Positions 2,828-37,087 of a stretch of 64,000 nt of DNA are shown one piece after another. The number at the start of each line of letters is the position of its first letter. The stretch's first letter is position 1. The position numbers and the translations under genes are program-made. The stretch comes from a virus (taxonomy: Duplodnaviria; Caudoviricetes), in the IMG/VR virus record IMGVR_UViG_3300031951_000008; one strand, 5' to 3'. The notes beneath the pieces were generated by a model. It did no database searches and had not been told where the DNA came from. It saw nothing but the letters and a program-made list of their open reading frames with translations.

Positions 2828-3898
2828 ATGGCTAACATTGGTTTAAGCGATAGCTACGACAACATACGAACAGACAAAGGGTTCGTCAAAGCATACAAAG
2901 GCGAAATAGAGTTCGAATTTAGAGATCGCAACGGCCAGACCATACGGCAGCACCGTGAGCCCAATATTATCAAAATATTCGCAAAAGAAATCTTAGCCCA
3001 TAGGCTTGCATATGGTAAAGTGTGGGACCCGACTGCAAATACCGGAAGTGGCGGCTGGGTAAGTCACTCTATTGACTTGGAAGAATTTGCTGTGAAGTAC
3101 ATTGTTTTCGGTGCTTCCTTCGACGAAAACGGCAACCCGTTAGATTCTGCTGATACTGACTTTTATACACCTGATTCTACTGTTGGTAGCTACACGCCAA
3201 TCCAATTGGGTGTTGGCGCAGAATATGATGGCGGTTTAATTAAACCCGTACCGATTTCTGAGCCGACCAGACCACTCAAAAGGATAGAAAGAATCTACTT
3301 TGAGCCTACCTATCAGCCCGCTGGGACCCCTCTCTTAACGGCAGATGTTAGAGCCATTAACAATGTAGTGGTTTTTGAAACTACTTTAACCAAAGACGAA
3401 TACAATGGGTTAGGTGTCACACTCAACGACTACCTTACCATCACTGAGGTCGCTCTGGTGGGTGCTGCGGAAGTTGATTCTCTTGGGTCATGTGACTGTG
3501 ACCCAAGAGACATCTTCCTGCAGGGCAGGAGCACCGGAGGAGCCCTGTCTGCTGTGGCGAGTGGTACGGCTACAGTTACTATCGACATGTCTGAGACAGA
3601 AGTAGATCTGATAAAAGAAGGCGACCAAGTAAAGATCGTAGCCGCTGATTCGACAGCTAGTGAAGATCAGGAGCTTAACCAACTAAACCCGTATTATCTA
3701 GTGTTGAGTAAACTTCCAGGTGGTCACGACTTGCAGTTAGATAGGGTGCCAGTAGACGCGGATTCTAACCCGATTACTGGGAGCATCGGGTTATTACGCG
3801 ATGGCTTCAAGATCTTTTCGCACAGAATCCTGTCTGTGCCCGTCAAGAAGTCAGAAGACTTCGAAATAGTGGTAAGATGGCGCATAATATTTAACTAA
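2828..3898 (+). CDS. Putative baseplate/tail-fibre attachment structural protein
   Basis: PNIIKIFAKEILA start, ITEVALVG and C-terminal PVKKSEDFEIVVRWRIIF resemble phage tail-collar/baseplate proteins. Confidence 0.55.
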   Translation: MANIGLSDSYDNIRTDKGFVKAYKGEIEFEFRDRNGQTIRQHREPNIIKIFAKEILAHRLAYGKVWDPTANTGSGGWVSHSIDLEEFAVKYIVFGASFDENGNPLDSADTDFYTPDSTVGSYTPIQLGVGAEYDGGLIKPVPISEPTRPLKRIERIYFEPTYQPAGTPLLTADVRAINNVVVFETTLTKDEYNGLGVTLNDYLTITEVALVGAAEVDSLGSCDCDPRDIFLQGRSTGGALSAVASGTATVTIDMSETEVDLIKEGDQVKIVAADSTASEDQELNQLNPYYLVLSKLPGGHDLQLDRVPVDADSNPITGSIGLLRDGFKIFSHRILSVPVKKSEDFEIVVRWRIIFN

Positions 3899-3909: not shown

Positions 3910-5313
3910 TTGACTCTTTTATTTAATATGCCTACTGGTAAAAGTATCGACTGGCAACTATATGATAATATGATAAACATACATCTACCGCATATGACTA
4001 TCTCTGACTTTCAAGCCAGATACTTGCCTAGCATCTCTGCCAAGGCTATAGGTTCACGGGCGAAAAAATTAGGCGTTAGGCCTAAAAAATATGTCCCTAC
4101 TGATATACATAAAACCAAAATTTCTAAATCAGCAAGCAAGGCTTGGACTGATAAGGAAGATGATATTCTTTTATCTTCAGCTCATATCCAATCTATAGCA
4201 GAATTAGCGATACGGCTCCAAACTACTAAGTCGGCAGTTCATAGAAGATTAAAGCATCTTGGCTTTGAACAAAAAGAGGCAGACATCGCTCACAAACACA
4301 GCCGCAGGACAATCGAGTCATTTACTCTAGAAAGGAGGCAAATGCTTTCTACTCTTAGTAAAGGTCGTAAGCTTACAGATGAACATAAGGCTAAATTAGC
4401 CGAAGCACGCAGGAGACAATCTGGTAGAATTAGCAGTATACAGCAATCGTTTTATGATATAGCGGACAGTATGCATATAGAATATAGAAAAGAGTCGGAA
4501 CCCGAATGCAAAATAGGACCATGGACATTTGATGCGTTTGTTAGCCCCAATATCTTGGTAGAGATCCAGGGCGAGTGGATTCACTCTCAACACAAGAATA
4601 TTGTTAAAGACGCGGCCAAAGCAACATATATTGCTAAATATTTCCCACAATACCGTTTAGAATACATTTGGGAAGCTGAATTCGGTTCGCCTAATAGGAT
4701 AAAGGACCGTATTAACAAGATGATAGGCATTATACAGACAGAGCAAATAGATTTCTCTTTTGTAGATGTAAGAACAGGATTAGGTAATTTAGAAGAATCA
4801 AGACGGTTTATAAATGCATATCATTATTTGGGCAATTTAAAGGGCAGCATAACATTTTCTGCATATTTATATGATGAGATGATCGCTACAGCCATCTATG
4901 GAGCACCATCGCGACCGTTAAATGGAGACTATGGTAGTTATCCCTCATGTTTAGAATTAAGACGTTTAGTTATAAAAGAAGGATATAATAAGAAAAATTT
5001 CGCTAGTTGGTTTTTAACTCGCTCTGTAGCCTTGGTACCCCCTAAAACTAAAAAATTGGTATCGTATGCAGATCCTGTTTTTGGTCATAATGGCACAGTA
5101 TATAAATCTAGTGGCTGGGATTTCGACGGGATTACAGAGCCGAGCTACTATTATATAAGCAATGATGGTTACGTCATGCATAAAAAGACTCTTTTCGAAA
5201 GAGCCAATTCGGTTCACATGAAGGAAGCCGACTACGCTCAGAAGCATGGCTGGACTAAGGTACCGACTCCTCCAAAAAATAGGTTTGTAAAGAATTTATG
5301 CAAGTCAAGATAG
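3910..5313 (+). CDS. Multidomain protein: HTH + NUMOD3 + DUF559/Vsr-like endonuclease + Mom-like (GNAT) DNA-modification domain
   Basis: WTDKEDDIL..IAELAIRL (HTH); KGRKLTDEHKAKLAEA (NUMOD3); FDAFV..ILVEIQGEWIH..YIWE (PD-(D/E)xK/Vsr); FINAYHYLG..ELRRL..LVSYADP..GHNGTVYKSSGW (Mom-like); TTG start. Confidence 0.7.
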   Translation: MTLLFNMPTGKSIDWQLYDNMINIHLPHMTISDFQARYLPSISAKAIGSRAKKLGVRPKKYVPTDIHKTKISKSASKAWTDKEDDILLSSAHIQSIAELAIRLQTTKSAVHRRLKHLGFEQKEADIAHKHSRRTIESFTLERRQMLSTLSKGRKLTDEHKAKLAEARRRQSGRISSIQQSFYDIADSMHIEYRKESEPECKIGPWTFDAFVSPNILVEIQGEWIHSQHKNIVKDAAKATYIAKYFPQYRLEYIWEAEFGSPNRIKDRINKMIGIIQTEQIDFSFVDVRTGLGNLEESRRFINAYHYLGNLKGSITFSAYLYDEMIATAIYGAPSRPLNGDYGSYPSCLELRRLVIKEGYNKKNFASWFLTRSVALVPPKTKKLVSYADPVFGHNGTVYKSSGWDFDGITEPSYYYISNDGYVMHKKTLFERANSVHMKEADYAQKHGWTKVPTPPKNRFVKNLCKSR

Positions 5314-8419: not shown

Positions 8420-9322
8420 ATGTCAGATATATTAGTTACTAAACAAGTAGTCAAGCAAGTAAGTGATAGTAATGATATTACGGAGGAATTAGCAAAGTTT
8501 GTTTTGGATTATATCGCATATTATTACCAAGAGCCGACGAGAGGTGTTTTGACTGCCCAAACGGTTGAAGAGCACGTTAAAACAATACAGAGCCAACTTG
8601 GTATGGAAGTTACTGGTCAAATAGACCTAAATACAGTAAAAACATTGGAGCACACTCCTAGGTGCGGTATTCCAGATTATACTAAGTCAGGGGCTCAAGC
8701 AGTCACGAGTTGGGGGCAAAGAAAGCTCACTTATTTTATTGAGAGGTTCGTCAGAGGGCTTTCTACATCCGATCAAGCGGATATTATCAAATTAGCTTTC
8801 GACCAATGGACAGAGGTAGCTAATATTCAATTCGAAAGAGTTAGTGATTCAAAGAATGCTAATTTGGTGCTGTCAACCGGGTCCGGAAGAGCAGACAACT
8901 TTGATGGCCCTGGGAACACACTCGCTTGGGCATATCTGCCACCATCTCTTAATTATAGGGGTCAATTGCTAATGCGATTCGATCTCGACGAGACTTGGAT
9001 CAATGATCCGAATTCAAGAGGTATACTAATGAGAAACGTCGCATGTCATGAATTTGGACATATGCTAGGCTTAGAGCATTCTCGTAATTCTAGGGCTTTG
9101 ATGGCCCCATACTATTCGCCTGGTGTAGCAAAACCTCAGGCACAAGACGACATTCCTAGAATACAGGCTCTATACGGCCCGCCAGTCTACGTGCCGCCAC
9201 CAAATCCGACTCCGACTCCTACTCCGACTCCTAGTGGCAAGTATGTCGTGCAGATTACGACTGATAGCTTGTCTAGTATTACTGTTAATGGCAAAAAGTT
9301 AACAGACTTCTCATTAATATGA
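8420..9322 (+). CDS. Matrixin-family (M10A) zinc metalloprotease with prodomain
   Basis: Cysteine switch PRCGIPD, HEFGHMLGLEH zinc motif, ALMAPYY Met-turn, PG-binding-like N-terminus, PTPTPTP linker. Confidence 0.9.
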   Translation: MSDILVTKQVVKQVSDSNDITEELAKFVLDYIAYYYQEPTRGVLTAQTVEEHVKTIQSQLGMEVTGQIDLNTVKTLEHTPRCGIPDYTKSGAQAVTSWGQRKLTYFIERFVRGLSTSDQADIIKLAFDQWTEVANIQFERVSDSKNANLVLSTGSGRADNFDGPGNTLAWAYLPPSLNYRGQLLMRFDLDETWINDPNSRGILMRNVACHEFGHMLGLEHSRNSRALMAPYYSPGVAKPQAQDDIPRIQALYGPPVYVPPPNPTPTPTPTPSGKYVVQITTDSLSSITVNGKKLTDFSLI

Positions 9323-36187: not shown

Positions 36188-37087
36188 ATGACCAAACCCA
36201 GCAAGCCGAGCAAGTATGAGTGGTCTATCGATAAGCCTATCGTTTATCACTATGACGAGTCTTTCGCCACGGATGGTAAGTCAATTTTGGCTTACGATCC
36301 GGCGAATGACATGTCTGCTTATAAAAAAGAGACTAAATTCATAAGAACCAATGATGACTCTATCTCGGCAATGTTCTCTGAGCTACGGAATGTAAAAGTC
36401 CTAACCAAACAGGCTATGTTCAAGATGTTTAAGAGATATAATTATCTTAAGCACTTGGCCGAGCAACAACGACAGGCATTCCAAGCTACTACCTTGGCTC
36501 AATTCGATTTCGAAGCTTTTCAAAAATACAATCACTACCAGCAAGAATGCCATCAAGTAAAAAACTTATTGCTTGAATCTAACCTAAAGCTGGTACTTCA
36601 TGTTCTTAAGAATCTCTCCTACAGAGGCAATCTCACACTTAATGAATTATATAGTTTAGGTGTTGAAAGACTTTTTATAGTAATAGAAGGGTTTAATCCT
36701 TTTTACAATTTTGCCTTTTCTACGTATGCTTTCCACGCTTTACGCAGACACTTTTATACACAAATTAAGAGGAACAAAGACAAAGTCTTGTTTGAAGACA
36801 GCAAGGCACTTGATACAGCCAAATCATATGACACCCATCAAAATGAATTTGACAAGCAAAAGATTATACACACTGTACTGCAAACCGTCGAGTGCCTAGA
36901 TGAACGAGACAAGTTCATAATCCAAAATAGATTTTTTGAGCAAAAAACATTGAAAGAGCTTGGAGAACGATTAGGCATTACGAAGGAAAGAGTCAGACAA
37001 ATCGAGATCAGGTCTTTACGTATTCTTAGAGAAACATTGTTAGCTCGTAACTTCGACACTAATTTATTGGGACTCATTGATGAATAG
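36188..37087 (+). CDS. Sigma-70 family RNA polymerase sigma factor
   Basis: Region 2 LLESNLKLV..F.P..NFAFSTYA; region 4 TLKELGERLGITKERVRQIE; AAGGAG SD. Confidence 0.9.
   Translation: MTKPSKPSKYEWSIDKPIVYHYDESFATDGKSILAYDPANDMSAYKKETKFIRTNDDSISAMFSELRNVKVLTKQAMFKMFKRYNYLKHLAEQQRQAFQATTLAQFDFEAFQKYNHYQQECHQVKNLLLESNLKLVLHVLKNLSYRGNLTLNELYSLGVERLFIVIEGFNPFYNFAFSTYAFHALRRHFYTQIKRNKDKVLFEDSKALDTAKSYDTHQNEFDKQKIIHTVLQTVECLDERDKFIIQNRFFEQKTLKELGERLGITKERVRQIEIRSLRILRETLLARNFDTNLLGLIDE

Follow-up and report, generated by a model that had tools for sequence, protein, structure and literature searches.

The gene at 3928-5313 of the window, as we call the whole 64,000-nt stretch of DNA, from an uncultured jumbo phage, analysed here, is very probably a homing element, judging from its sequence and its distribution, and it encodes a Vsr-type nuclease joined to a C-terminal Mom domain. 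The single best reading of the locus, to which we give a probability of about 0.45, is that a homing element and an active, locally acting Mom domain are present together in this one chain. Neither the fusion architecture nor the idea that it forms a cut-and-protect unit is new, since Iyer et al. 2021 (PMC7824862) described jumbo-phage proteins in which a Mom GNAT domain is likewise joined to a REase-fold nuclease and proposed cut-and-protect for them; the gene is a new instance of a known and widespread gene type. Those fusions were read as restriction-modification systems, whereas the comparisons made here reveal a mobile gene that occurs in many copies and is linked to its site. What is new is the swapping of nuclease cassettes at a single insertion site, together with a fixed silent arginine codon beside the alleles that carry the Mom-type form. 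The features of the locus are as follows.

2828-3898, plus strand: conserved upstream (host) gene, all-beta and possibly structural, with the insertion hot spot at its 3′ end (from homologues and predicted fold)
3824-3828, plus strand: second Arg codon, CGC in 7/7 lineage-B/C alleles and AGA in the window (from the allele alignment)
3878-3885, plus strand: TGGCGCAT, with the silent Arg codon CGC at 3881-3883, fixed in 12/12 lineage-A alleles; candidate immunity or Mom-recognition site
3928-5313, plus strand: Hef-type free-standing homing endonuclease gene with a C-terminal Mom domain, 461 aa, ATG start (from homologues and domain matches)
3928-4125, plus strand: N-terminal helical (HTH-like) module, residues 1-66, linked to this site, seen nowhere but immediately behind the upstream gene and joined to several nucleases
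4141-4410, plus strand: a second HTH at about residues 72-115 and, at 146-161, a weak NUMOD3 motif, together a putative DNA-binding arm (from weak matches)
4420-4725, plus strand: EDxHD/Vsr-type nuclease domain with D202, E212, H219 and D228 (from alignment to I-Bth0305I and the family profile)
4741-5304, plus strand: Mom-family GNAT domain with a helical insertion at 419-439 (from Pfam, PHROG, Foldseek and alignment to Mu Mom)

As the earlier note had it, one open frame in the window (3910-5313, plus strand) runs through the nuclease and then the Mom domain, but its start is moved here. Translation almost certainly begins at ATG 3928, with TTG 3910 probably unused, because the homologues at the same site begin with MP(S/T)G and because, in a strain about 98% identical, five extra bases after 3920 would shift the TTG-3910 extension and not the ATG-3928 frame. 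The nuclease-Mom order is repeated in 50 homologues from independent assemblies, and one contig of an independent strain covers the whole stretch in one piece, so the refuting condition named in that note, an assembly artefact, is already excluded, as is a chance fusion, and both retain virtually no weight. The gene has a GC content of 38.6%, against 46.3% in the gene before it. Within the 64-kb window we found no second Mom or Vsr-type copy and no tRNA genes.

The identification of the C-terminal domain as a Mom-like GNAT domain is borne out by matches to Pfam PF25680 (residues 289-459, E 1e-14, 55 bits against a cut-off of 27) and PHROG 1384 (E 1.4e-23), by comparison of the family profile with Mu Mom (8bv8, E 1.3e-10), and by Foldseek, for which 8bv8 is the top PDB match (E 7e-10); among solved structures Mu Mom is also the closest in sequence. 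The domain shares with Mu Mom (PDB 8bv8; PMC13219725) the GNAT fold, a helical insertion at the matching place and six active-site residues, with H299, Y300, R346, S360, D382 and Y392 corresponding to Mu H58, Y59, R111, S124, D149 and Y159; these are retained in 94, 93, 94, 91, 93 and 93 of 95 homologues, respectively. Silva et al. 2026 (PMC13219725) name the same Mu residues together with R151, which is essential in vivo. In the sequence alignment the R151 position is V384 here, Thr in 71/95 homologues and Arg in only 3/95, and the His three residues after it is invariant among the 95. Mu Mom thus differs in possessing R151, and also in being a stand-alone enzyme that protects against restriction genome-wide. 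The proposal to judge the present domain by acyl-CoA-binding residues is out of date, since Mu Mom moves glycine from Gly-tRNA(Gly), not from acyl-CoA (PMC13219725). Retention of the active-site residues, R151 excepted, across the 95 homologues indicates that both the nuclease and the Mom domain are under purifying selection, and we lean slightly toward a Mom domain that is catalytically active.

The nuclease part of the architecture described earlier (HTH, NUMOD3 and DUF559/Vsr nuclease) stands, although this protein gave no direct DUF559/Vsr match in Pfam. The family profile matches I-Bth0305I (3r3p) with E 5.8e-7, and REase_MTES_1575 is matched by 10 of 16 family members. D202, H219 and D228 align with D196, H213 and D222 of I-Bth0305I and E212 is the conserved Glu, the D/E/H/D set being retained in 94, 86, 89 and 91 of the 95 homologues; the catalytic residues are therefore intact, and the domain is predicted to cut DNA. 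I-Bth0305I (PDB 3r3p; PMC3239194) resembles the present protein in its Vsr-fold catalytic domain and its catalytic residues, and perhaps in its N-terminal NUMOD/HTH arm, but it is intron-encoded and has no Mom domain. The arm is the weaker part of the assignment, with an HTH match of E 0.006 (Pfam, with part of the sequence only) and a NUMOD3 Pfam match of E 0.0064 that falls below the cut-off; helical HTH-like units are visible in the AlphaFold model (pLDDT 84). For the N-terminal region a word-index search returned only the query, and it was a profile search that found relatives.

Databases label such proteins Hef-like homing endonucleases, and Hef enzymes are known for homing activity. Taylor et al. 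2011 assigned the Hef types to a Vsr-like homing family. Both of our family profiles match Campylobacter Hef15 (1.7e-7 and 2.6e-12) and likewise phiR1-37 g171, and PHROG 559 and 3339 extend across both domains; the T4-like nrdA-nrdB Hefs give a clear match to the nuclease profile and a weak one to the Mom profile, the Mom-like domain of T4-type Hef genes being much more decayed. Hef and Hef-like genes (phage U5 Hef, Acj9, the Campylobacter Hefs and phiR1-37 g171) share with the present gene a variable N-terminal arm, a Vsr-type nuclease and a Mom-like C-terminal domain, and they too are free-standing beside conserved genes, with up to 12 matching places in each Campylobacter phage genome. They are nevertheless far from it in sequence (24% identity to phiR1-37 g171) and differ in site and in N-terminal module. 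The His-Tyr pair of Mom is kept in the present subfamily, as opposed to His-Leu/Ile in those Hefs, and the present subfamily lacks R151. A partial literature collection contained no paper linking Hef to Mom or to an acetyltransferase.

The earlier note placed the element directly after a virion gene; it does adjoin a conserved gene, but the virion role is unproven, as that gene gave no family match and its predicted fold gave only weak matches to tail and baseplate proteins (Z 5-7). The module formed by residues 1-66 occurs nowhere but immediately behind this host gene and is absent from Mom fusions at other sites; when nine proteins were selected on sequence and located on their contigs, every one of the nine proved to follow this host gene. 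There the module carries one of three nuclease-Mom lineages (31-40% identical to each other), a TnsA-like nuclease without Mom (Pfam PF08722, E 1e-9 to 3e-17), which is the commonest form among cluster representatives, or an HNH-like nuclease (P0071, the domain being assigned by motif only). The 61 non-redundant alleles comprise 19 of Mom type (one a truncated remnant), 7 of TnsA type, 1 HNH-like and 34 empty, a tally in which filled alleles are over-sampled by the element-based searches and a few empty alleles have short flanks. Because Mom-less TnsA-like and HNH-like nucleases reside there, occupation of the site does not depend on Mom. No contig joint skipping the element was seen in four runs of contigs.

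The TnsA-like (PF08722) nucleases with HTH/NUMOD3 arms that are free-standing at the same site (L029:2265-3299, L052:514-1563, L059:5021-6067, L067, L069, L072 and L152) look like a homing-endonuclease lineage, on which, as on any tie between TnsA-like homing genes and jumbo phages, a search of part of the literature found no paper. At L073:2390-3964, another kind of nuclease-Mom gene, one that lacks the site-linked module, lies directly upstream of the same host gene. The host gene is also present on a 121-kb contig (L158) of a Promethearchaeota MAG, which is probably a mis-binned phage contig.

The distribution of Mom-domain genes across the related phages, whose genomes are 340-410 kb, is equally uneven. 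Ten related phage records contain 5, 3, 9, 1, 10, 0, 2, 0, 1 and 3 Mom-domain matches, all of which sit in long frames of 440-620 aa; a 354-kb record contributes at least five full copies, and none was found in a complete 408-kb relative. The N-terminal arms differ from site to site. On the host-gene tree, where the rows marked empty include six later found to have the TnsA-like form, the 10 filled rows are scattered and require 10 changes. The cassette and host trees disagree, as when the window and L004 have hosts that are 71% identical and cassettes that are 48% identical (AU test p 3e-108 and 0.002, for groups picked after seeing the trees). With a copy number of 0-10, patchy occupancy of the site and trees incongruent with that of the upstream gene, the pattern is that of a free-standing homing gene and not of a housekeeping restriction-modification enzyme. 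The earlier note had suspected a homing element from gene position and had proposed looking for presence or absence at this locus; the patchily filled site, the many copies per genome and the incongruent trees strengthen that suspicion. Among the nuclease-Mom frames, those of L102 and L105 reach about 780-800 codons, well above the usual 430-620, and a 509-aa ORF (L006:8207-9736, minus strand), in which inspection by eye suggests RuvC-like motifs similar to those of TnpB/Cas12, lies about 600 bases from the Mom element in a 354-kb phage.

The Arg codon CGC at 3881-3883 sits five codons before the stop of the upstream gene and 45 bases before ATG 3928. Among the first nine lineage-A alleles, it was the one codon out of 46 invariant four-/six-fold degenerate codons to be identical in all, and when nine empty alleles were drawn at random 500 times, 8 of the draws gave a column like this. 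All three lineage-A loci fetched after the pattern had been noted carry CGC, and the new lineage-B, lineage-C and HNH-like loci do not. The codon is CGC in 12/12 lineage-A alleles versus 8/42 non-Mom alleles (p 4e-7), and the codon at 3824-3826 is CGC in 7/7 lineage-B/C alleles versus 11/42 non-Mom alleles (p 4e-4), p-values that are optimistic in treating the alleles as independent, which they are not fully. The latter codon ranks top of 299 for lineage B but does not by itself reach significance once corrected. The fixed codon at 3881-3883 is not accounted for by simple linked inheritance of the gene's end, since it persists in hosts whose third-position GC is as low as 17-23%, only 13 of the 135 Arg codons elsewhere in lineage-A hosts are CGC, and the Arg codon two positions upstream is scrambled. 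TnsA-type alleles, which in three cases are 41-51% identical to lineage A over the N-terminal 160 residues, show no such constraint (CGC in 2/7), and no other constrained codon stood out in them; the signal thus tracks the nuclease-Mom cassette.

Taken with its flank, the codon forms the word CGCAT in 18 of 19 Mom-type alleles, the exception being a lineage-B allele with CGCGT and hence no top-strand adenine. The target of Mu Mom is C/G-A-C/G-N-C/T, which this word does not match. At 38 other insertion sites CGCAT is not enriched upstream; the first 100 bases downstream contain 9 counts, or 2.5/kb against about 1/kb, for a word that overlaps ATG start codons. An intergenic motif, AAAGT..TTG.CTCTTTT, was not above chance in the window. 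Outside lineage A, the Trp-Arg pair equivalent to 3881-3883, which is conserved otherwise, is changed, mostly to Trp-Ser, in 18/49 alleles, compared with 0/12 within it, and these changes could be either escape from cleavage or tolerated drift. The fixed CGC suggests an immunity or modification site. A truncated lineage-A remnant (L163:1501-2058, 185 aa) that has lost the nuclease and Mom still has TGGCGCAT upstream.

We propose the following mechanism. The N-terminal helical modules would bind DNA, with the region around the 3′ end of the upstream gene as the likeliest place, and the Vsr-type domain would cut the cognate allele of a co-infecting phage, as expected by analogy with I-Bth0305I and the T4 free-standing endonucleases, after which recombinational repair would copy the gene into the cut allele. 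Mom, by homology most likely still an enzyme, would carry out aminoacyl-tRNA-dependent adenine acylation, acting locally because it is tethered to the same site and thereby sparing the element's own allele from cutting. The fixed CGC beside adenine 3884 would be part of what Mom recognises, and the fixed C at 3883 would mark what makes the donor allele safe. Local self-protection by Mom at this site is a tentative idea that falls short of even odds. The full version, in which a self-protecting homing endonuclease shields its allele not through a change of sequence but through tRNA-dependent hypermodification of adenine at a single site, with CGC(A)T at 3881-3885 as the determinant, is a little less likely again. 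If it were true, the element would combine homing with restriction-modification, and the Mom domain of Hef-family proteins would for the first time have a function assigned to it. Protection of the site by Mom would also amount to a new form of self/non-self discrimination by a selfish nuclease and to a site-specific DNA-modifying enzyme.

The main competitor, which we hold to be a real though minority possibility, retains the same homing endonuclease but makes Mom a non-catalytic module for DNA binding, specificity or dimerisation, with the C at 3883 itself blocking cutting. Sequence-based immunity is the established norm for homing endonucleases, single-base discrimination by I-BmoI being a cited case, and it would explain the required C at 3883 equally well: with Arg fixed, only CGC can supply that base, as the only Arg codon ending in C, and the enrichment is limited to 3881-3883. 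A passive Mom would likewise fit the absence of R151 (V384 here), the decay of the Mom motifs in T4-type Hefs and the homing of Mom-less TnsA-like and HNH-like nucleases to the same site, all of which count against an active Mom, as do the CGCGT allele of lineage B, the dissimilarity of the word to the Mu target and its lack of clear enrichment at other insertion sites. On the other hand, six Mu active-site residues in 91-94 of 95 homologues are more than a passive fold usually keeps, and in two other lineages another codon is fixed as this same word, CGC. The preferred reading of an active, locally acting Mom can be set against a passive one at this very locus: elements with and without Mom share one N-terminal module here, dozens of alleles are empty, and C3883, next to A3884, is a candidate base where DNA-level selection is seen only in Mom-bearing alleles.

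Two further explanations seem improbable to us. In one, the chain is a restriction-modification weapon, with Mom modifying the phage genome broadly and the nuclease destroying host or competitor DNA. This was the published prediction (Iyer et al. 2021, PMC7824862) and the second option of the earlier note, and both catalytic sets are largely intact; it sits poorly with a copy number of 0-10, unrelated N-terminal arms and scattered sites, with the complete relative in which no copy was found, and with the exchange for Mom-less nucleases at one site to which the N-terminal module is confined. Genome-wide immunisation, as the note's first form of cut-and-protect, is disfavoured for similar reasons, namely that no copy was found in the complete relative, that others have up to 10, and that a Mom-less nuclease often holds the same site; the local form of the idea has gained a candidate site. 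In the other explanation, the fixed CGC serves the homing gene as its promoter or as an operator for autorepression and has nothing to do with cutting or modification. Its place 45 bases before the ATG would suit such a role, and several T4 free-standing endonucleases have promoters within the 3′ end of the upstream gene. However, CGC is not maintained beside the TnsA-type elements, whose N-terminal arm is similar, the codon fixed in lineages B and C lies another 57 bases upstream, and there is no clear promoter signal (8 found versus 6.2 expected).

Other genes around the locus deserve mention. The window ORF at 2200-2820 (206 aa) has a homologue at L007:1120-3987 with a C-terminal extension to 955 aa that is fibre-like by eye. 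A Matrixin-type metalloprotease with a PG-binding-like N-terminus is encoded at 8420-9322 of the window (Peptidase_M10, E 3e-33) and is kept near the locus in related phages, and a Sigma-70-family factor is encoded at 36188-37087 (PHROG 351, E 1e-17).
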